From a virus (taxonomy: Duplodnaviria > Heunggongvirae > Uroviricota > Caudoviricetes): a stretch of 12,437 nt of DNA. A model generated the notes under the pieces. The model searched no databases. It saw nothing but the letters and a program-made list of their open reading frames with translations, and was not told the DNA's origin. The DNA lies in the IMG/VR virus record IMGVR_UViG_2778261632_000004. One strand, 5' to 3'. A program made the position numbers and the translations under genes. Shown here piece after piece: positions 118 through 10,576 of this stretch. Each line of letters begins with the position of its first letter. Within the stretch, counting starts at the first letter, position 1.

Positions 118-1050
118 ATGGACAACGACAAAATTGATCAACACAGCGACGAAATTGAAGTTGAGAGTGAAGAAAAAGAGCGTGGCAAAAAAATAGAAAT
201 AGATGAAGATCGACTCCCCTCCCGGGCGATGGCAATTCATGAGCATATCCGCCAGGATGGTGAAAAAGAGCTGGAACGCGACGCAATGGCACTACTGTGG
301 TCAGCCATTGCGGCGGGTCTGTCGATGGGCGCTTCATTACTGGCAAAAGGGATATTTCATGTCGAACTGGAAGGTGTGCCGGGCAGCTTCTTGCTGGAGA
401 ATCTCGGTTATACCTTTGGTTTTATTATCGTCATTATGGCCCGCCAGCAATTATTTACCGAAAACACCGTGACTGCGGTACTACCCGTCATGCAAAAACC
501 GACAATGAGCAACGTTGGCTTACTTATGCGGTTATGGGGCGTCGTGCTGCTGGGTAATATTCTCGGGACAGGTATTGCGGCGTGGGCATTTGAATATATG
601 CCTATCTTCAATGAAGAAACTCGCGATGCATTTGTCAAAATCGGCATGGATGTGATGAAGAACACCCCCAGCGAGATGTTTGCCAACGCGATCATTTCCG
701 GCTGGCTGATCGCCACTATGGTATGGATGTTTCCTGCAGCGGGTGCGGCAAAGATTGTGGTGATTATATTGATGACCTGGCTTATTGCCCTGGGTGACAC
801 CACTCACATCGTTGTCGGTTCTGTTGAAATCCTCTATCTGGTGTTTAACGGTACGCTGCACTGGAACGATTTCATCTGGCCCTTCGCACTACCTACTTTA
901 GCGGGGAACATCTGCGGCGGCACCTTTATCTTCGCGTTAATGAGTCATGCACAGATCCGTAACGACATGAGCAACAAGCGCAAAGCAGAAGCACGCCAAA
1001 AAGCAGAACGTGCGGAAAACATTAAGAAAAATGATAAAAACCCGGCATAA
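118..1050 (+). CDS. yfdC: Inner-membrane protein YfdC, formate/nitrite transporter (FNT) family; chromosomal flank
   Basis: Translation from the ATG at 118 (MDNDKIDQHSDEIEVESEEKERGKK...) matches my recollection of enterobacterial YfdC, about 310 aa with multiple hydrophobic helices. The supplied ORF reaches position 1 only because no in-frame stop precedes it. A purine-rich stretch lies just upstream of 118. Ordinary GC content. Confidence 0.85.
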   Translation: MDNDKIDQHSDEIEVESEEKERGKKIEIDEDRLPSRAMAIHEHIRQDGEKELERDAMALLWSAIAAGLSMGASLLAKGIFHVELEGVPGSFLLENLGYTFGFIIVIMARQQLFTENTVTAVLPVMQKPTMSNVGLLMRLWGVVLLGNILGTGIAAWAFEYMPIFNEETRDAFVKIGMDVMKNTPSEMFANAIISGWLIATMVWMFPAAGAAKIVVIILMTWLIALGDTTHIVVGSVEILYLVFNGTLHWNDFIWPFALPTLAGNICGGTFIFALMSHAQIRNDMSNKRKAEARQKAERAENIKKNDKNPA

Positions 1051-1085
1051 ATGGCGAGGGTTTAAGCAATCGCACGGCAGCGTAC

Positions 1086-1114
1086 TTACCCCGCAGTCCA
1101 TTAGCGGGTATACT
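1086..1114 (+). promoter_or_regulatory. Putative sigma70 promoter for argW (-10 TATACT at 1109..1114, weak -35 TTACCC at 1086..1091)
   Basis: TATACT hexamer ends 11 bp before the first tRNA nucleotide; the -35 is a poor match at 17-bp spacing. Sequence reading only. Confidence 0.35.
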
Positions 1115-1125
1115 CATGCCGCATT

Positions 1126-1200
1126 GTCCTCTTAGTTAAATGGATATAACGAGCCCCTCCTAAGGGCTAATTGCAGGTTCGATTCCTGCAGGGGACACTT
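1126..1200 (+). tRNA. argW: tRNA-Arg, anticodon CCU
   Basis: Cloverleaf folded by hand: acceptor stem GTCCTCT/AGGGGAC, D arm GTTA..TAAC, anticodon stem AGCCC/GGGCT with loop CTCCTAA (anticodon CCT), T arm GCAGG-TTCGATT-CCTGC, discriminator A at 1197. The 3' CCA is not fully encoded (genome reads A-C-T-T). Lies directly after yfdC, as at the known yfdC-argW locus. Confidence 0.85.
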
Positions 1201-1384
1201 TAAAGACCTTTCTCTACATTTCACTTCATTACATAACCACTTAAAAAAACAGCAAGTTATCACCGAATCGGCCTGATTTTCATTTCAGTTAATTTCATGA
1301 CATTACAACCTCGTGATGGTATAAGTGATGGTATTCCCCAGTTCGATATGCAGATACCATCAATTTACCAAAATGAGTACAGAT

Positions 1385-2659
1385 ATGGCCATTAATGTGC
1401 TTTCCCCCAAACAGATAGAAAACGCCAAGCCGAAGACCAATGATTACAAACTTACCGATGGAGGGAGTTTGTATCTACTGGTACGAAAGACTGGTGGAAA
1501 ATACTGGCGTATGAATTATCGTTTTGATGGAAAACAAGTGACATTGGCATTAGGGGTCTACCCAGATGTCTCACTTGCAACAGCGCGGAAACGGCGTGAT
1601 GAAGCCAGGCAACTACTAGCCGATGGTCGTGATCCTCGCGAAGCAAAGAAACCCAAAAAGGAAGACCCAATTTCCCCCACGTTCGAGAGTGTTGCCAGAG
1701 AGTGGCATAGTGGAACGATGGGGCATCCTGAGTGGAAAGAGATCACCCGTAAAAAAATTCTCCGAGAAATGGAAAACCACCTCTTTCCTGCCATCGGTTC
1801 AAAGCCTATCGATACGCTCAAAACCCGTGACTTGATGCCGATGCTGGTTGAGATGACTGAGAAAGGAATTGGTGCCACAACGAGCCGGGTAAAAACCACT
1901 ATGACGAGCATCTTCCGTTATGCCGTGCAACGTGGAATTGTCGATTACAACCCTGCCCACGATCTAAAAGGTGCAATTACGACCCCCAAAGTACGACATC
2001 GCCCCGCACTACCTCTCGAACGTTTACCTGAACTGTTAGCGAAAACGAGAAGTTACACGGGAAGACCATTGACTCGCCTAGCAGTTCTATTTTCCCTGCA
2101 CACTTTTGTGCGATCCAGCGAACTACGACATGCCAGATGGGAGGAGATCGACATTGAAAATGGGCTATGGACGATACCAGGACAACGTGAAGAGATCGCA
2201 GGGGTTAAATTCTCAGAGCGGGGTGCAAAGATGGGGGCTGCTCATTATGTCCCGCTATCTAGTCAGGCTATCGGGGTACTGGAGGATATAAGGAAAATCA
2301 GTGGTGAATATCTGCTGGTTTTCCCCGGTGACAGCAACCCATATAAACCGATGAGCGAAAACACAGTTAATAAAGCACTGCGAACGATGGGTTACGACAC
2401 TCAAAGTGATGTTTGCTTGCATGGGTTCAGGGCGATGGCCTGCTCTGCACTGACCGAATCAGGACTCTGGTCACGCGATGCAGTTGAACGGCAGATGAGT
2501 CACCAAGAAAGAAACGAAGTGCGGGCAGCATATGTGCATCTTGCGCAGCACATGCAGGAACGCCGCAGAATGATGCAATGGTGGTCTAATTATCTGGAAC
2601 TAAATAAGGACGAATTTCATGCTCCTTATGACTTATCAGGTATTAACATTATCAATTAA
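1385..2659 (+). CDS. int: Tyrosine-type site-specific integrase, P4 family
   Basis: N-terminus LSPKQIENAKPKTNDYKLTDGGSLYLLVRKTGGKYWRMNYRFDGKQVTLALGVYPDVSLATARKRRDEARQLLADGRDP follows the P4-integrase pattern (AKPK, DGGGLYL, KYWR, LALGVYP). The C-terminal catalytic region has the HGFRA box and a likely tyrosine nucleophile in VRAAYVH. Start is uncertain: in-frame alternatives at 1325 (GTG), 1328 and 1373; none has a strong SD. Confidence 0.9.
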   Translation: MAINVLSPKQIENAKPKTNDYKLTDGGSLYLLVRKTGGKYWRMNYRFDGKQVTLALGVYPDVSLATARKRRDEARQLLADGRDPREAKKPKKEDPISPTFESVAREWHSGTMGHPEWKEITRKKILREMENHLFPAIGSKPIDTLKTRDLMPMLVEMTEKGIGATTSRVKTTMTSIFRYAVQRGIVDYNPAHDLKGAITTPKVRHRPALPLERLPELLAKTRSYTGRPLTRLAVLFSLHTFVRSSELRHARWEEIDIENGLWTIPGQREEIAGVKFSERGAKMGAAHYVPLSSQAIGVLEDIRKISGEYLLVFPGDSNPYKPMSENTVNKALRTMGYDTQSDVCLHGFRAMACSALTESGLWSRDAVERQMSHQERNEVRAAYVHLAQHMQERRRMMQWWSNYLELNKDEFHAPYDLSGINIIN

Positions 2660-2689
2660 ATTTTCTTATAATTTAAAACAGAGGTCATA

Positions 2690-3571
2690 ATGCAGCATTC
2701 AAAAGAGAATGAAACTATATTCTTAGGAAATCTATGGATTGACAAAAAAATACCACCATTAGAATATTGTTCATTTGAACGCGCTTCAAGACTATTAGAA
2801 TGCGAGATTGATGATTTATTACACCTATACGAAATAGGCGCTTTTAATATCGCATTCAAGGCGGATGGACTTGCAGTTAGATTTAATGTTAATTTCCTCT
2901 ATAAAAATCAGAAAATGGAAATTGACTTAATTCATCCCGTATTAACTAATCAATCACTAGAGATGGAATTTTCAACAATATGGTATGACCTTAAAGATGA
3001 CTACTTTGAACATTTTGAAAATGGGCTTCAAATTATAGGATTTGCCTGTGGTATTTGGTACGCCGATGATATGATAAGTGACATAAAAAATGGATTAGCT
3101 ATAGATCCAGATTATGAATTCAGGCTTAAACCGGTAAAAATACGAGATAATGTTTTGATGGCAACGGCCTCATATGAAGGAAATAAGGTCATTGGTATTC
3201 CATTTGAAGATCTTCTTATCATGCGAAGAGATTTAGAGTTAATATGGAAATCAGTAAAAACTGGAATTCCTATGCCAAGTTTACTTACGAAAAGAATTTC
3301 ATCTGAACCTAAAATCCCCAAGCGATTAAATAACACTGCTGAGCATCATGCAAAAAATAGGGAGGGGTTATTAAATGCAGCCATATATATATTAGCAAAA
3401 TACCCAAGCGAATGTCGTGGTGAAAGAAAAGAGATAAGTCCTGAAAAGTGGACTAACGCCATAATTAAACATTTAGGAGAGCTACCTCCAATATTTATCA
3501 CTAATGAACAAGAAATCTTAAGAAAATTACGATTAGCGGTTAATCATGCGGGATTGAAACAAAAGGGGTAG
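2690..3571 (+). CDS. Hypothetical protein, 293 aa; AT-rich orphan cargo gene between int and alpA
   Basis: Clean ORF with GAGG SD 6-9 nt upstream of the ATG and only 30 nt after the int stop. Visibly lower GC than its neighbours. No motif I can recognise by eye. Confidence 0.7.
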   Translation: MQHSKENETIFLGNLWIDKKIPPLEYCSFERASRLLECEIDDLLHLYEIGAFNIAFKADGLAVRFNVNFLYKNQKMEIDLIHPVLTNQSLEMEFSTIWYDLKDDYFEHFENGLQIIGFACGIWYADDMISDIKNGLAIDPDYEFRLKPVKIRDNVLMATASYEGNKVIGIPFEDLLIMRRDLELIWKSVKTGIPMPSLLTKRISSEPKIPKRLNNTAEHHAKNREGLLNAAIYILAKYPSECRGERKEISPEKWTNAIIKHLGELPPIFITNEQEILRKLRLAVNHAGLKQKG

Positions 3572-3608
3572 ACTGAAACAATCTACAGGTAGAGTTGATT
3601 ACACTACC

Positions 3609-3637
3609 TTCACAGCATTTTGATATCCCCATAGTAT
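3609..3637 (+). promoter_or_regulatory. Putative sigma70 promoter for alpA (-35 TTCACA 3609..3614, 17-bp spacer, -10 TAGTAT 3632..3637)
   Basis: Hexamers and spacing read from the sequence; the predicted transcription start falls inside the adjacent palindrome. Confidence 0.35.
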
Positions 3638-3665
3638 CTGCCGTGTTCATTACATAACACGGCAG
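3638..3665. promoter_or_regulatory. Perfect 10-bp inverted repeat CTGCCGTGTT-N8-AACACGGCAG (operator or stem-loop) overlapping the alpA SD
   Basis: Exact reverse-complement arms at 3638..3647 and 3656..3665; the loop contains CATTACAT. Ends 8 nt before the alpA ATG, and the SD (AGGT, 3664..3667) overlaps the right arm. Confidence 0.45.
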
Positions 3666-3673
3666 GTAATTTC

Positions 3674-3889
3674 ATGACATTAAAAACTTATCCTATCACT
3701 GGACATGCCCGCCCACGAGCTACTGCTGACTTTTTGCAAATAAGTACGGTTACTCTCTGGCGCTGGGAAAAGAACAATCCTGAATTTCCCAAATCTATAC
3801 GCATTTCAAAACGGGTATCTGTTTACGATGCACAAGAAATTAGGCAGTGGGTTAAAGCTCAATCAGCAGGATTGGAGGAAGTAGTGTAA
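3674..3889 (+). CDS. alpA: AlpA/Vis-family helix-turn-helix regulator (phage excisionase/transcription factor type)
   Basis: 71 aa; FLQISTVTLWRWEKNNPEFPKSIRISKRVSVYDAQEIRQWV matches the AlpA/Vis signature (HTH followed by a hydrophobic-P-K-P-I-K-x-G-x-R-x-V-x-W recognition wing). Lies downstream of int, as in P4-like islands. Confidence 0.85.
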   Translation: MTLKTYPITGHARPRATADFLQISTVTLWRWEKNNPEFPKSIRISKRVSVYDAQEIRQWVKAQSAGLEEVV

Positions 3890-3908
3890 TGACAATATTA
3901 ACAAAGCT

Positions 3909-3928
3909 GGGGAGAAAAAAGCCTCCCC
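3909..3928. terminator. Putative bidirectional stem-loop terminator between alpA and the convergent minus-strand ORF
   Basis: GGGGAG-N8-CTCCCC hairpin (3909..3914 / 3923..3928), 20 nt after the alpA stop and 11 nt from the minus-strand ORF end. T-rich run on the minus-strand side (AGCTTTGTTAATATT); weaker U-tract on the + side. Confidence 0.45.
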
Positions 3929-3938
3929 AACGTATTAA

Positions 3939-4133
3939 TCAATTCTTTGGTTCTAAACCTCGGCTTTGTAACTCTTTGCGTAGAATGCGCTTGATCCAAG
4001 CCGCTAGCGATTCATCGCCATCCTGCTGTTGTGCTTGTTCCATCAGTTCACGCAGTTCAGGGTCAAGTCGGAACTGGAATGGCGGATTCCCACGTCTTTC
4101 ATTTTTGTGTGTTGACACGTCAATTACACCCAT
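3939..4133 (-). CDS. Small ribbon-helix-helix-like putative DNA-binding protein (64 aa)
   Basis: PPFQFRLDPELRELMEQ...ESLAAWIKRILRKEL fits an RHH (Arc/MetJ/CopG-like) beta-strand plus two helices pattern. Divergent from the kil-like operon. No obvious SD, so the call is tentative. Confidence 0.5.
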   Translation of the reverse strand: MGVIDVSTHKNERRGNPPFQFRLDPELRELMEQAQQQDGDESLAAWIKRILRKELQSRGLEPKN

Positions 4134-4166
4134 TGTAATGTATTTATGTGTAATGACACATTACAC
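4112..4166. promoter_or_regulatory. Divergent promoter/operator region: TTGACA -35 (4112..4117), candidate -10 TAATGT (4136..4141), and two TGTAATG/CATTACA palindromes
   Basis: Inverted repeat ATTACA-N5-TGTAAT (4123..4139) and perfect 8-bp-arm palindrome GTGTAATG-ACA-CATTACAC (4148..4166), all immediately upstream of the kil-like operon and overlapping the 5' end of the minus-strand RHH ORF. Confidence 0.45.
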
Positions 4167-4249
4167 ACAGAAAAACAAAATAGCAACGCCCCGGAGTGTT
4201 TGCAGCACCACCGAGGCGTCTGACCAGCACGTTATATGAGGTAACGAAG

Positions 4250-4426
4250 ATGGCTAAACAGAAGTGTACCTGGTTATTTGCGGCGATCAACCGCAGTCAA
4301 CGTAATGCCCGTCCGGTGATGTTAAGGATCACCGCAGATAACGAGCGATCAGCGCGGCGCAGACTTGCCCCGGACTATGTACTGAGCTTTGCCGGGCGCA
4401 TTCCCTGCGGAGGTGAACATGCGTAA
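4250..4426 (+). CDS. Small protein resembling Icd-like/Kil-type host cell-division inhibitors of P4-like elements (58 aa)
   Basis: Start chosen at the ATG at 4250, preceded by GAGGT SD. Sequence MAKQKCTWLFAAINRSQRNARPVMLRITADNERSARRRLAPDYVLSFAGRIP resembles, from memory, proteins annotated as Icd-like in P4-like islands. First gene of the operon ending in the primase, in the position of P4 kil. Confidence 0.55.
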   Translation: MAKQKCTWLFAAINRSQRNARPVMLRITADNERSARRRLAPDYVLSFAGRIPCGGEHA

Positions 4427-4778
4427 TTATCCGCATCCCGGCGAACGCTGGCAGCATGAACGTGGCTGGACGGTCACGATTATCCGATTAATAGAAGCCT
4501 CGCCCTCTGTGGCGCTGGTTAATCCTGAATTCAGCTGTGAAGTGCTGATACGTCATGACAGCGACAACCAGCTTTCTTCCTGCCCTCTGGCATGGTTTGA
4601 ACAGCGATATACGCGCCTGTTTGATGTACCGCTCTTTAAGCCTGCACCAGCTCCTGCAGGCGGTAGTGGTTCCGGCCCGCTGACACTGCATCCGTCTGTG
4701 CTATTTATCCGCTGGCGGGAGCGTAGCATATGGCGTTCTGCTGAGCCTGATGACGGTCACTATTCAAAGTTTCTCTGA
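4419..4778 (+). CDS. Hypothetical protein (119 aa), P4-like early operon
   Basis: Start at ATG 4419 with GGAGGTG SD; overlaps the previous gene by 8 nt (translational coupling). No recognisable motif. Confidence 0.6.
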   Translation: MRNYPHPGERWQHERGWTVTIIRLIEASPSVALVNPEFSCEVLIRHDSDNQLSSCPLAWFEQRYTRLFDVPLFKPAPAPAGGSGSGPLTLHPSVLFIRWRERSIWRSAEPDDGHYSKFL

Positions 4779-5474: not shown

Positions 5475-8143
5475 CAATACAGACGGTTACGCAGATTTCA
5501 GCCGCCGCACGGGGGAAATGGCCCGTTATTCTGCAGATGCTGCGTATTGATGTACCTGAAAACGGCAGGCATGGTCCCTGCCCGAAATGTGGGGGCAAGG
5601 ATCGTTTTCGCCTTGATGACCTTGACGGGCGCGGGACGTGGATCTGCAGCCAGTGTGGCAATGGTGACGGTCTGGATCTGGTTAAGCTCGTAACCGGTTA
5701 CAGCGTCAGAAAGGCTGCGCAGGAGGTGGCGCAGGTGCTTAATGTGCCGGATGTGCAGGAACTGCCTGTTAAGCCTGCCAGACAAAAAGCCCCTAAACGC
5801 GACATGGGTCTTACCGTGGCGGCGCTGATGAAAGAGAGCCACACGGGAGAAAGCGCCTATCTGACAGGAAAAGGGTTCGCCGGATACCCGGCCTCTCTGA
5901 CCGGAAGCGTGCAGCATATCAGCGGTAAGGATTTTCCTGCCGGTTCCCTGCTGTTACCACTCACGACCAACACCGGAGCCGTGACCGGTGCACAGCTTAT
6001 CGCCCCGACGGGTGAAAAAAGCATACTGCCCGGCAGCACGATGAAAGGCGCGTTTGTGTCGCTCAGCCCGTTACCGTCTGAACCACCGATACAGGTGGTG
6101 ATTACCGAAGGTTACGCTACGGCGCTGACGGTAAGCCAGCTCACTGCCGGATGCGTAGTGGCTGCCATATCTGCGGGCAACCTGCCCAATGTGGCGCAGT
6201 CGCTGCGGGCACGCTGGCCTGAGGTAAAAATTATCATCGCCGGTGATAACGATTTTCAGGATGGGGAGGAGAATCCCGGCAGAGCCTTTGCTGAACGGGC
6301 GGCAAAAGTTGTTGGCGGCTGGATGACGCTGCCACCAGGAGAGATTAAGGCTGACTGGAATGACTTTCATCGGGAGCACGGTATTACCCGTGCCCGTGAA
6401 GCCTTTCGCAACGGTCTGGTACTGTGCGGGGAAGGCCGCACGCAACTGCCGCACGGGTTCCGTCTTACCCAGGAATATCTCTGGTATGAAAAGCAGGTAC
6501 AGCGCAACGGTGAGACGGAGATCCAGAACGTCAAAATATGCAGCCCGCTGCGCGTGACGGCAATCACCTGCGATGCCGATGGCGGTAACTTCGGACGACT
6601 GCTGGAATGGGAAGATACGTGGGGTGAGCGTCGCCGCTGGGCGATGCCGATGGAAATGCTGAGCGGCAGTGGTGAGGAACTGCGCCGGGTACTGCTGGTT
6701 AACGGGCTGTCTTATATCAGCACCACCGGTGAGGCACGCGCACGCCTGATGGAATATATCTCACTGTGTAAACCGGAACGCCGCGTGACCTGCGTCAGCC
6801 GTACTGGCTGGCATGGTCAGGTTTACGTCCTGCAGGATGAGGTCAGCGGTGAAGGTGCAGAGGGTGTCATTCTCCAGACCACTTCCGTGCAGGGGCGTGA
6901 TTTCCGCGTGTCGGGCACAACAGAGGAATGGCGGGAGAACGTATCCCGCTACTGTACCGGCAACTCCCGCGTGGCATTTGCTGTCAGCCTGGCCTTTGCT
7001 GCACCACTGTTACGGCTGGTTGGTATGGACGGCGGCGGCTACCACCTCAAAGGGGAATCGACAGACGGTAAGACCACCACCATGAAAGCGGCAACCTCCG
7101 TCTGCGGCGGGCCTGACTACTGGCAGACATGGCGGGCCACCGGCAACGCGCTGGAGGGATGCGCCAGCCGCCGCAACGATGCCGCCATGATGCTTGATGA
7201 GATCCGGGAAGTTGACGGACGCGAGGCAGGCAATATCGCCTACATGCTGGCAAACGGTCAGGGCAAGGGCCGTGCCGGTACGGACGGTGAGCTGCGTACC
7301 CGTAAGCAGTGGCGCCTGTTGTTCTTTTCAACTGGCGAGTTGTCTCTGACCGAACATGCGGCAAAGGCCGGTGAGCGTACTTTTGCCGGGATGGAAGTCA
7401 GGATGATCCAGATCCCCAGCGATTCCGGGAAATTTGGCGTTTTTGAGGAGCTGCACGGCTTCGACAGCGGCAAGGCTCTGGCAGAGCATCTTGAATGGGC
7501 CACGTCCTGCTACTACGGTTCGCCGTTCCGGGAGTGGCTGAAAGCACTGACCGCTGATCTTAACGGACTAACGGCACAGGCAAAATCGCTGATGAAGGAA
7601 TATGCTGCCGCCCTGACTCCGAAAGATGCAGGCAACCAGGTGGGCCGGGCTGTGAATCGCTTTGCACTGGTGGCGATGGCGGGTGAACTGGCAACCCGTC
7701 TGGGTATCACCGGCTGGCCTGAGGGTGAAGCACTGCGGGCAACCCGCGTCTGCCTGAACGCATGGCTGAAAGATCGCGGGCACACCGCCAATCAGGAAGA
7801 TATTGCCGCACTGGAGCAGGTTCGTAGTTTCTTTACCGCGAATCAGTACAGCCGCTTTGCAGACTGGTATGACGAGCGCAACCGCCCCGGCAATATGGTG
7901 GGCTGGCGCAGGGTGGAGAAAGGCAGTACCGCGCAGGGCACGGAAGCTGTCACTACGTTCTATGTCATGCCGTCCGGCTGGAAAGAAATCTGCAGGGGAT
8001 TTGACCCGCGCAAGGTGGCTCGTCTGTGCGCAGATCGTGGATACCTGCTGCCCTCCACTGATGGCAAACTCCAGACAACCATTCGCCCGCCAGAGATGAA
8101 TCCCCGCAGGCTCTATGTCTTCAACAGCGAGGTGCCGGGTTAA
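5471..8143 (+). CDS. P4 alpha-like primase-helicase: N-terminal zinc ribbon, toprim primase domain, C-terminal P-loop NTPase (DUF927-type)
   Basis: 890 aa. Cys4 zinc-binding motif CPKCGG...CSQCG. Toprim signature residues in VVITEGYATAL (E) and IIIAGDNDF (DxD). Walker A GESTDGKTT and Walker B-like MMLDEI. Confidence 0.9.
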   Translation: MTIQTVTQISAAARGKWPVILQMLRIDVPENGRHGPCPKCGGKDRFRLDDLDGRGTWICSQCGNGDGLDLVKLVTGYSVRKAAQEVAQVLNVPDVQELPVKPARQKAPKRDMGLTVAALMKESHTGESAYLTGKGFAGYPASLTGSVQHISGKDFPAGSLLLPLTTNTGAVTGAQLIAPTGEKSILPGSTMKGAFVSLSPLPSEPPIQVVITEGYATALTVSQLTAGCVVAAISAGNLPNVAQSLRARWPEVKIIIAGDNDFQDGEENPGRAFAERAAKVVGGWMTLPPGEIKADWNDFHREHGITRAREAFRNGLVLCGEGRTQLPHGFRLTQEYLWYEKQVQRNGETEIQNVKICSPLRVTAITCDADGGNFGRLLEWEDTWGERRRWAMPMEMLSGSGEELRRVLLVNGLSYISTTGEARARLMEYISLCKPERRVTCVSRTGWHGQVYVLQDEVSGEGAEGVILQTTSVQGRDFRVSGTTEEWRENVSRYCTGNSRVAFAVSLAFAAPLLRLVGMDGGGYHLKGESTDGKTTTMKAATSVCGGPDYWQTWRATGNALEGCASRRNDAAMMLDEIREVDGREAGNIAYMLANGQGKGRAGTDGELRTRKQWRLLFFSTGELSLTEHAAKAGERTFAGMEVRMIQIPSDSGKFGVFEELHGFDSGKALAEHLEWATSCYYGSPFREWLKALTADLNGLTAQAKSLMKEYAAALTPKDAGNQVGRAVNRFALVAMAGELATRLGITGWPEGEALRATRVCLNAWLKDRGHTANQEDIAALEQVRSFFTANQYSRFADWYDERNRPGNMVGWRRVEKGSTAQGTEAVTTFYVMPSGWKEICRGFDPRKVARLCADRGYLLPSTDGKLQTTIRPPEMNPRRLYVFNSEVPG

Positions 8144-8170: not shown

Positions 8171-8365
8171 GGTAACAGGTGAAACAGGTGGAACAACCGT
8201 ATTTTACAGGGCTGAACCTGTTCCACCTTCTGAAATAGTGAGGTGGAACAGATGTAACGCCAGCCAATCCGCTGTTCCACCTTGTTACCCGCGATGTTCC
8301 ACCGGTGCAGTGTATATAAGTGCTTTATAAAACAAAGCTGTAACACATGTTTCACCTGTTCCACC
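8171..8365. repeat. Iteron cluster: at least 8 copies of the 9-mer TGTTCCACC/GGTGGAACA (variant TGTTTCACC) in both orientations, plus an AT-rich tract; candidate ori/crr-like replication site
   Basis: Copies at 8178..8186 (variant), 8187..8195, 8219..8227, 8242..8250, 8273..8281, 8295..8303, 8348..8356 (variant), 8357..8365; degenerate GGTAACA/TGTTACC at 8171..8177 and 8283..8289. Arranged as inverted pairs and mirrored tandem pairs. AT-rich tract at 8311..8337. The motif is one base longer than the P4 type I iteron TGTTCACC bound by the alpha protein. Confidence 0.6.
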
Positions 8366-8453
8366 GCATCAGGGACATAAAGCAGACTGAAACTGAGGGC
8401 ATTTTTATCTGGCTGGCTTTCATAGCCACGTCTGAATAACCGCAAGCGCCCGT

Positions 8454-10160: not shown

Positions 10161-10576
10161 TCCCCTTTTCCTGGCTGGCATGAGAGCGAATGAGTGCATG
10201 TCTATGGCGCATGAAAACGCATGAGTCTTATGCACCATTTTTGACGAGAAAACCCTTGTTTGGTGGCTTCTGAGACGATTTATGAGGTGCATGAAAACCA
10301 GTCTGTTAAGCGAAGCGGGCAGGCGGGCGGGGCTGTGCGTGCCGTAGGGTAATTTCGAATAAACTGTAGCAGTGCTATTTGACGTCCAACAACTTAAACA
10401 AAACCATTTTATATCCATTAACAATGGAATCTTAATTAGATTCACGATAATAACATAGGTACATTATTTCAAAAGCAATCTAAAACACTGTATTCAACAG
10501 GGTTGTTGAACAAGTTTCACTCAAAAAAATATTTCACACAATGGAAAAAGCCTTTAATTTTAACAAGTTAATTTAT

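Follow-up and report, generated by a model that had tools for sequence, protein, structure and literature searches.

We analyzed a 12,437-nt stretch of viral DNA (IMG/VR record IMGVR_UViG_2778261632_000004; hereafter, the window), and especially the repeats shared by the leaders of two of its genes, the integrase gene int and the regulatory gene alpA. The window opens in yfdC, as judged from the sequence. Next comes argW, which encodes a tRNA-Arg with anticodon CCU (1126..1198, + strand; ARAGORN and the tRNA family in Rfam) and whose 3' end is the attL core junction, and then an integrated element. The same yfdC/argW context is annotated in relatives. The first gene of the element, int (1385..2659, + strand), encodes a P4-type tyrosine integrase of 424 amino acids (Pfam Arm-DNA-bind_3, Phage_int_M, and Phage_integrase). 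It is followed by orf293, an open reading frame (ORF) of 293 amino acids to which no family was assigned, and by alpA (3674..3889, + strand), which encodes a 71-amino-acid winged-helix protein of the AlpA/Vis family (PF05930, 31.6 bits versus a cut-off of 21). The ATG at 3674 is thus the start of a Phage_AlpA protein, as the sequence-only reading of this DNA had proposed. AlpA belongs to phrog_66 (“excisionase and transcriptional regulator”) and matches PDB entry 8c3t (“AlpA family phage regulatory protein”, E = 0.0011).

Beyond alpA are a divergent gene for an Arc-like ribbon-helix-helix (RHH) protein, an icd-like gene, an ORF with DUF5375, a Toprim/DUF927 primase, and, as identified by Pfam and PHROG searches, homologs of sid, psu, and delta from P4. 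Given int, AlpA, the primase, and the sid, psu, and delta homologs beside argW, the element is a P4-like phage satellite integrated at argW.

The 3.2-kb left end of the element is found in 63 of 5,426 complete genomes of E. coli, and the int leader is found in 72 of them (at least 95% identity over at least 80% of a 302-bp query). For comparison, we collected relatives from E. coli genomes (L001-L003), from one genome per species (L004-L014; these integrases are 52-87% identical to the window's), and from viral and metagenome contigs (L084-L118). These yielded about 10 distinct leaders for int, 20-23 for alpA (the number varies with the span of sequence compared), and 18 distinct combinations of int and alpA.

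Repeats shared by the int and alpA leaders

The 16-mer TAATTTCATGACATTA occurs exactly at 1290-1305 and at 3667-3682, in agreement with the sequence-only reading. Even with three mismatches allowed, about 0.14 matches are expected, and none of 200 shuffles reached the observed count. The similarity extends in register beyond the 16-mer (23 of 26 positions are identical between 1286-1311 and 3663-3688), and the 16-mer is itself palindromic at 14 of its 16 positions. The 13-mer TTCATTACATAAC is also an exact repeat. Its alpA-side position (3646-3658) was given correctly, while its int-side copy lies at 1225-1237, not at 1226-1238. An exact pair of 13-mers is at chance level, as the 12.4-kb window holds three other, unrelated pairs; the 13-mer carries weight because it accompanies the 16-mer in both leaders, with order and strand unchanged.

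The heptamer CATTACA, whose recurrence had also been pointed out, occurs seven times in the window versus 1.85 times expected, and none of 200 shuffles reached seven. Its hexamer ATTACA occurs 12 times, always within 1228-4165; the other 8.3 kb has none. Of the 6-mers shared by the two leaders, ATTACA ranks first: it is present in 9 of 13 lineages for each leader, versus a background of 0.46 per kb elsewhere in the loci. Also, the degenerate 12-mer TTSATKACAYWA hits exactly five sites in the window (1225, 1294, 3595, 3646, and 3671), all on the + strand and confined to the int and alpA leaders. The repeats in the two leaders are genuine and conserved.

In the int leader, the core of the 16-mer is the block TTCATGACATTACA (1294..1307, + strand). 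This block is invariant in 8 of the 10 aligned int leaders and has a single base change in the other two, as compared to a mean column identity of 77%. It is present in all 18 of the int/alpA combinations, and it is nearly invariant across relatives whose integrases are 77-87% identical. The sequence-only reading had made conservation in related islands a test of these motifs, and on the int side the block stays nearly fixed while its flanks diverge. Positions that would be synonymous if the block were translated are just as fixed, so the constraint acts on the nucleic acid.

The block overlaps the -35 element of a promoter that we infer for int (Pint): ATGACA (1297-1302), a 17-bp spacer, and TATAAG (1320-1325), all on the + strand, with transcription predicted to start at about 1332. 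The 17-bp spacing is kept in every relative, with -10 variants TATAAG, TATAAA, TATATT, TATCGT, and TATCTT. Our promoter scan did not report Pint because position 6 of the -10 element is a G in the window. The predicted -10 element is formed by the end of the first of two direct repeats, TGATGGTAT (1314-1322 and 1326-1334, + strand), which are 12 bp apart, and an inverted copy, ATACCATCA, follows at 1354-1362. Because the arm repeats of the P4 attP have an identical layout, we read 1314-1362 as arm-type sites for Int. L010 shows a joint change in all three, to TTGCGGGTAT or ATACCCGCAA, which is the behavior expected of sites that are read by one protein. Between the second and third repeats lies GTTCGATA (1341-1348, + strand), which is invariant in all 10 int leaders. 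At the corresponding place, P4 has CTTCGATT (L154 3932-3939, minus strand) and L014, whose Int is 52% identical, has GGTTCGATGA. The TorI sites of KplE1, too, have GTTCG as their core.

Upstream of the arm sites, the int leader is rich in TTCA on one strand. Each of the 10 leaders has 5-8 copies on the + strand and 0 or 1 on the other strand. Relative to the block, there are copies at 0, at -10, and at -72 to -74 in all 10 leaders, at -82 to -84 in nine, and at -62 to -64 in seven. In the window, the proximal copies are at 1279, 1284, and 1294 (1279..1297, + strand; those at -10 and 0 are the ones found in 10/10 relatives). The distal TTCA block of the attL arm includes the distal motif copy TTCATTACATAACC (1225..1238, + strand), which holds the 13-mer, and a further TTCA nearby at 1220. 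At this distal site, TCATTACACAA is retained only in the closest int relative (L013 type). The stretch from the att core to the arm sites holds short direct repeats, spaced by about one helix turn, that extend up to the predicted -35 element. Given a TTCA array that is phased at 10 bp and ends at the block, the int copy of the 16-mer looks like the promoter-proximal repeat of a directionality-factor-type array, merged with the predicted -35 element. The int copy has no RNA structure beyond that of shuffled sequence (z = 0.33), and no match to the IHF consensus was found in any of the three regulatory regions (those of int, alpA, and the RHH gene).

A conserved hairpin in the alpA leader

The sequence-only reading overlooked a conserved hairpin, with the alpA-side 13-mer at its top, that appears to hide the alpA ribosome-binding site. 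The stem has 13 base pairs (3635-3647 with 3656-3668; 3635..3668 overall, + strand) and an 8-nt loop, CAUUACAU (3648-3655). The predicted folding energy is -19.7 kcal/mol (z = -5.32 versus shuffled sequence). The 13-mer (3646-3658) comprises the top of the stem and the loop, and the Shine-Dalgarno sequence AGGT (3664-3667) is within the 3' arm. The alpA copy of the 16-mer (3667..3682, + strand) spans the last two bases of the stem, the spacer, the ATG at 3674, and codons 2 and 3.

All 20 of the distinct alpA leaders that we folded form the hairpin, with loops of 8 or 17 nt and with a shifted register in L005. RNAalifold found no structure in a naive MAFFT alignment of the alpA leaders because the 8- and 17-nt loops were misaligned, so we replaced this with an alignment of the arms only, from 14 sequences that are distinct but related (a modest sample). 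In this alignment, 93.4% of cells are paired, versus 24-49% if the partner is slid, and 3 of the 13 stem pairs have changed on both sides (UA/CG, CG/UA, and GC/AU). None of 500 shuffles reached the covariation score. The cells that are not Watson-Crick pairs comprise 20 G-U and 12 unpaired cells if read on the sense strand, versus 5 and 27 on the other strand; by hand count, there are about nine substitution events of the G-U type and two or three of the A-C type. For sequences that are related and few, this bias is suggestive, and it fits an RNA helix. The homology between the window and the AH21 lineage begins at 3636, at the base of the stem, which implies that the hairpin travels with alpA.

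We searched Rfam with 1050-4450 (E ≤ 1), and it gave nothing except the tRNA; a match to RybB (21.5 bits) was far under its cut-off of 40. We also rejected the idea that the hairpin is a terminator: a U-tract is missing after it in most lineages, including the B-type and L013-type leaders, and no intrinsic terminator was found on the + strand of 1050-4450. A weaker outer pairing, of UUUUGAUAU (3618-3626) with AUGACAUUAAAA (3674-3685), would lie outside the 13-bp stem and also take in the start codon of alpA.

The best promoter-like site in the alpA leader is TTCACA, a 17-bp spacer, and TAGTAT (3609..3637, + strand), with a predicted start at about 3644. Immediately upstream of its -35 element is another copy of the motif, TTGATTACACTACC (3595..3608, + strand), which is kept as TTGATTACGCTACC in L007. 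The -10 element ends at the base of the hairpin, so that the predicted start is within the 5' arm. The best match to a promoter places its -10 element at the identical position in 7 of 14 lineages, despite unrelated upstream sequence; these matches are weak (8-9 of 12 positions). On hand inspection, neither ATTACA nor TTCATT of the alpA leader would serve as a -35 element, as there is no -10 element at 16-18 bp. Another promoter-like site, at 3554-3582, is upstream of the hairpin, and its transcripts would hold both arms.

If transcription does start near 3644, then transcripts from alpA's own promoter could not form the full stem, while transcripts from upstream could. One could then imagine a switch with two states. 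Read-through transcripts from int or argW would be silenced by the hairpin, transcripts from the alpA promoter would be translatable, the loop would repeat the Pint/attL sequence, and AlpA would read one motif both as DNA at attL and as RNA in its own message, much like the proposal for Vis of P4 and int mRNA. We consider this combination quite unlikely. If true, it would connect excision, the shut-off of int, and the translation of alpA; such a leader switch was not described for phage satellites in the papers that we read.

The hairpin also contains a tiny ORF, GTG TTC ATT ACA TAA (3643-3657), which has no Shine-Dalgarno sequence. The B-type version is ATG TTG ATT ACA CAA GCG ACA TAA (MLITQAT*) and the L013-type version is GTG TTA ATC ACA TAG. 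Several of the differences are at third codon positions (ATT/ATC, ACA/ACT, and TTC/TTG/TTA), and there is a 9-nt difference in loop length. The codon pattern lacks firm statistical backing (about 0.1, roughly counted). The tiny ORF could add a third layer of control.

Candidate regulators of the shared motif

What is specific to this element is the apparent combination of a 14-nt candidate site, common to attL/Pint and to the alpA leader, with a conserved hairpin over the alpA ribosome-binding site. We did not find either of these described in the papers that we read. AlpA is the master switch of Gram-negative phage-inducible chromosomal islands (PICIs) and of P4-like satellites. In EcCICFT073, AlpA switches on its own gene, and the island needs it to be induced, excised, and transferred (PMC6092414); AlpA of EcCIMP1 has a similar role (PMC11773190). 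Neither report defines the DNA site of AlpA or the route by which the helper phage activates it.

The proposal that we favor, and view as quite possible rather than probable, is that one regulator, probably AlpA, binds the candidate sites in both leaders. Elements of this type normally have such an arrangement. There would be a single cis-regulatory motif, roughly TTSATKACAYWAMM, with five copies on the same strand (at 1225, 1294, 3595, 3646, and 3671), and it would be recognized by a single trans-acting factor, most probably the satellite's own Vis-like AlpA. In related elements, Vis-like proteins are both recombination directionality factors and regulators. The copy at 1294, in the attL arm, would be the last of the phased TTCA repeats; it sits on the predicted -35 element of Pint, next to the arm sites that cover the -10 element and the start. 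A protein bound there would both aid the excisive complex and shut off int, much as TorI does in KplE1 and Vis in P4. The alpA copies are beside the -35 element (3595), shortly after the point where transcription is predicted to begin (3646), and on top of the start codon (3671), so AlpA could regulate itself. These copies would be embedded in a second layer of control, namely the hairpin that pairs with the Shine-Dalgarno sequence.

Several observations support a common factor. The 23/26 identity between the two leaders is far beyond chance. In L097, the loop of the alpA hairpin, rather than the start codon region, carries TTTCATGACGTTACAT, which matches the int block at 15 of 16 positions; this appears to be a second, independent occurrence in a different alpA lineage. 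The loop and the start region also resemble each other. The best 12-mer match between them has 10 of 12 identities in the window type and 11 of 12 in the B type, versus 7.7 (standard deviation 0.8) for shuffles. They change together between lineages: the window type has TTCATTACATAA and TTCATGACATTA, respectively, and the B type has TGATTACACAA at the two sites alike. The recognition region of AlpA, STVTLWRWE, is nearly invariant across the lineages that we studied. The suggestion in the sequence-only reading that these are sites for one regulator therefore survives and gains support from the invariant int block, the shared ATTACA, and the copy in L097. The site, if confirmed, would permit the prediction of AlpA regulons and of attL architecture in related islands; if it is not confirmed, what is left is a routine account of the attL arm and the 5' leader.

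Other observations weigh against AlpA as the common factor. Across the 18 combinations, the flanks of the block show no clean co-variation; for instance, L113 combines the window's int copy with another alpA start region. (The distant AlpA group L119-L149, at 36-40% identity, has no int within 4 kb and is unusable for this comparison.) B-type elements keep the TTCA array at attL and have no TTCA in the alpA leader, only GATTACAC, which implies either that one protein reads two sub-motifs or that the factors differ. By hand count, the alpA-side copies are 25-38 nt apart and are not helically phased. Codon 2 of alpA reads ACT instead of ACA in L091 and L106, a third-base change that breaks the motif; this is as expected if coding constraint dominates there. 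Also, AlpA of EcCICFT073 left the expression of Pint-lacZ unchanged (PMC6092414).

The palindromes near the RHH gene, which the sequence-only reading had grouped with the int and alpA motifs, do not belong with them. The RHH gene (3939..4133, - strand) encodes a 64-amino-acid, YlcI/YnfO-like protein of phrog_228 (Arc-like repressor); its match to NCBIfam YlcI_YnfO_N is weak and under the cut-off. A quartet of ATTACA/TGTAAT half-sites covers the divergent promoters (4123..4165). This quartet is kept in the window and in L007, L091, L106, L110, and L092, all of which have RHH type 1 (...NPPFQFRLDPEL...). L001, L093, and L097 have RHH type 2 (...SPPFQMRLTDEF...), and there ATGGTAATTACCAT replaces the quartet, twice in L097. 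The RHH and alpA types reassort: L001 combines the window's alpA leader with RHH type 2, and L092 and L093 have the same alpA type with different RHH types. Since the quartet co-varies with the RHH type, independently of the alpA type, it appears to be the operator of the RHH protein, separate from the int and alpA motifs. The RHH gene probably starts at GTG 4118 rather than at ATG 4133. The homolog in L001 is shorter and starts at the codon equivalent to GTG 4118, and a leftward promoter-like site (GTGTCA, 16 bp, TACAAT; 4159-4132) overlaps the ATG at 4133.

Could the shared motif be explained without AlpA binding to DNA? Perhaps there is no common factor, and the resemblance is historical: a segment would have been copied once, in the ancestor of this alpA lineage, and the copies kept by separate constraints. 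The int copy would be kept as a -35 element and a directionality-factor repeat, and the alpA copy as a loop, a spacer, a start codon, and Met-Thr-Leu codons. This would account for an int block that is invariant whatever the alpA type and an alpA start region that varies with alpA lineage, as well as for the full 16-mer being confined to one alpA lineage (the window and L001 types) and having lost identity in L091 and L106 (at the synonymous site) and in L007 (in the spacer); the exact 13-mer is at chance level in any case. We nevertheless consider this history somewhat unlikely, as it leaves unexplained the 15/16 copy in the L097 loop, the retention of ATTACA both by the int block and, in most lineages, by the loop, and the joint change of loop and start region between the window type and the B type. 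Recognition of RNA is a further alternative. A protein, either AlpA acting like Vis of P4 or a factor from the helper phage, would bind the single-stranded motif in the loop or start region of the alpA hairpin and in the int leader RNA, and would set translation or stability. All five motif copies are on the sense strand, one of them is in the 8-nt loop, and the substitutions in the hairpin favor G-U on the sense strand. There is also a reported proposal, by Piazzolla et al., that Vis binds int mRNA and inhibits its translation, as recounted by Panis et al. (PMC2951348). But the int copy is unstructured and lies in the predicted -35 element, upstream of the predicted start, so that it would be in RNA only via read-through from argW, and a transcript from the promoter that ends at 3637 would miss the 5' arm. 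For these reasons, we regard recognition of RNA as unlikely.

The factor might instead be a helper-phage or host protein, such as a helper inducer of alpA, or the nucleoid protein H-NS on AT-rich leaders. The helper-encoded inducer of alpA was not identified in PMC6092414, and H-NS binds the alpA promoter in Shewanella CP4So (PMC5148205). Also, the motif is identical in lineages whose AlpA proteins are only 64-68% identical, but because the recognition region is nearly invariant, a shared motif is expected for AlpA too. The absence of IHF consensus sites, and a motif that is specific and oriented, unlike the sites of H-NS, make such a protein a distinctly doubtful candidate. As for the RHH protein (3939-4133), CATTACA/TGTAATG is found in all three regions. 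RHH proteins such as the omega protein can bind short heptads in mixed orientations, and so this one might bind at int, at alpA, and at its own promoter. Yet L001 combines a different RHH protein and palindrome (ATGGTAATTACCAT) with the window's alpA leader, and B-type elements, which lack the RHH gene, still keep ATTACA in both leaders; we think that a role for the RHH protein at int and alpA is highly improbable. We put just as little stock in the other suggestion of the sequence-only reading, a translated leader peptide, or a duplicated initiation region, that would couple the translation of int to the ATG at 1297. The 32-codon upstream ORF is present as described (1297..1395, + strand), and its stop ends 8 nt past the int ATG (1385-1387). 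The frame is open in all relatives, it stops 10-14 nt past the int ATG in many of them and is in frame with int in L005, L008, L009, and L112, and the Shine-Dalgarno sequence of int is weak or badly spaced in most relatives (by hand reading of the aligned leaders). CAGG is upstream of the equivalent ATG in L116 and L118. In the window and most relatives, however, a Shine-Dalgarno sequence is lacking from the 13 nt before this ATG, which are pyrimidine-rich, and the ATG itself makes up the first half of the conserved -35-like hexamer. Conservation does not extend to the peptide, as the conserved DNA of GTTCGATA and ATACCATCA is read in different frames in the window and L001. The stop falls anywhere between -13 and +59, counted from the int ATG, unless the ORF continues in frame into int. 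That the frame stays open is largely imposed by the conserved DNA repeats, and translation from 1297 would require read-through transcripts from argW. We conclude that the upstream ORF is probably not a gene.

Related systems and other features of the element

Each layer of the proposed control has a precedent: int promoters embedded in attL in KplE1 and P4, self-regulating AlpA in PICIs, and hairpins over Shine-Dalgarno sequences. The first is clearest in KplE1 (CPS-53), which also uses argW. There, five TorI sites in two blocks at attL overlap the intS promoter, and IntS and TorI repress it (PMC2951348). As predicted for the window, int reads away from attL from its own promoter in the arm, arm-type sites for Int cover the -10 element, and direct repeats for the directionality factor come in two blocks, one of them at the -35 element. 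The integrase of KplE1 is from another family, however, and its motif is GTTCG, where the window's candidate motifs are TTCA/ATTACA. Also, a copy of the site at the start of torI is not reported.

In P4, both Int and Vis down-regulate int, and Vis is needed for excision (PMC7286903, PMC2951348). The P4 record annotates two direct repeats and one inverted repeat as “attP arm sequence repeat”, with CTTCGATT between. This resembles the window's two direct arm repeats 12 bp apart, inverted repeat at the start of int, and TTCGAT-like center. At the place equivalent to Pint, TTGAAA, 18 bp, and CATAAT lie over the annotated arm repeats, and four short repeats phased at 10 bp (TCCK at -80, -70, -60, and -50) run into the -35-like hexamer. 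Unlike the window, the repeats are TCCK rather than TTCA, and vis is in the late operon, not beside int. Vis of P4 was not detectable with the window's AlpA (using tblastn), and by hand reading, the region upstream of vis has no hairpin of the alpA kind.

EcCICFT073 and other Gram-negative PICIs share the order of int, alpA, a divergent YlcI/YnfO-like RHH gene, an icd-like gene, and a primase (PMC6092414); the window's element additionally carries the P4-type sid, psu, and delta genes. The int leader of EcCICFT073 has GTTYCA phased at 10 bp (at -150, -140, -130, -87, and -77). Its AlpA has no BLASTP similarity to the window's, the integrases are only 25% identical, and no hairpin was seen at the alpA start by hand reading. 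Upstream of its alpA are GA(A/C)ACAA repeats, again phased at 10 bp, and their complement, TTGTKTC, resembles GTTYCA. EcCICFT073 (L157, E. coli CFT073; 7195-7245, 7455-7475, and 5780-5860) looks like a parallel case of a motif that is common to the int and alpA regions.

More broadly, P4, CP4-57, and EcCICFT073 all have a pair of arm repeats, 12 bp apart, preceded by short direct repeats with 10-bp phasing. Such phased repeats are a recognized signature of directionality-factor sites: those of Apl are direct repeats separated by about one helix turn (PMC7498355), and in KplE1, at argW like the window's element, Int and the directionality factor repress an int promoter that overlaps attL (PMC2951348). 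In the intA and alpA leaders of CP4-57, the ATTACA-type motif was not found.

Fold-back inhibition of translation offers a further parallel. In the transposase genes of IS10 and IS50, an inverted repeat pairs with the ribosome-binding site, and its 5' arm is at or upstream of the gene's own transcription start, so that only read-through transcripts are silenced. The alpA hairpin similarly has its 5' arm at the predicted start and pairs with the ribosome-binding site. It differs in that the start site of alpA is a predicted one, and in that the loop also carries a conserved motif. The AlpA antiterminator of Pseudomonas aeruginosa shares the Pfam family name, and there too a DNA element is found inside a promoter, which in the window is a predicted one (PMC7969949, PMC9371919). 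We rejected antitermination of this type for the window: GGGACGN5GGTA is found only at chance level and not near the promoters, and 1050-4450 has no + strand terminator.

At attL, argW lacks an encoded 3' CCA. The window has GGGGACA-CTT (1190-1201), and several relatives (among L001, L007, L011, and L013) have GGGGACA-ATA or GGGGACA-ATC, while B-type elements retain GGGGACACCA at the 3' end of argW. With the CCA lost, the tRNA-Arg(CCU) of these lysogens would need the CCA-adding enzyme. In L012 (Pantoea stewartii, 3800-3900), the element is not beside a tRNA-Arg. Its end adjoins a hairpin, CCCCTGCATA...TATGCAGGGGG, whose 3' side mimics the 3' end of a tRNA (CAGGGGGCAATACC), and this junction may be a secondary or tandem attachment site.

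Farther into the element, the gap between the primase and the sid-like gene has inverted and direct repeats rich in GGTGAAACAGGTGGAACA (8174-8206, 8239-8258, and 8328-8368), which could be a replication origin (crr-like) or a late-promoter region. Downstream of the delta-like gene, a 28-nt direct repeat with 71% identity (10191-10218 and 10271-10298, 80 nt apart) ends in GCATGAAAAC.

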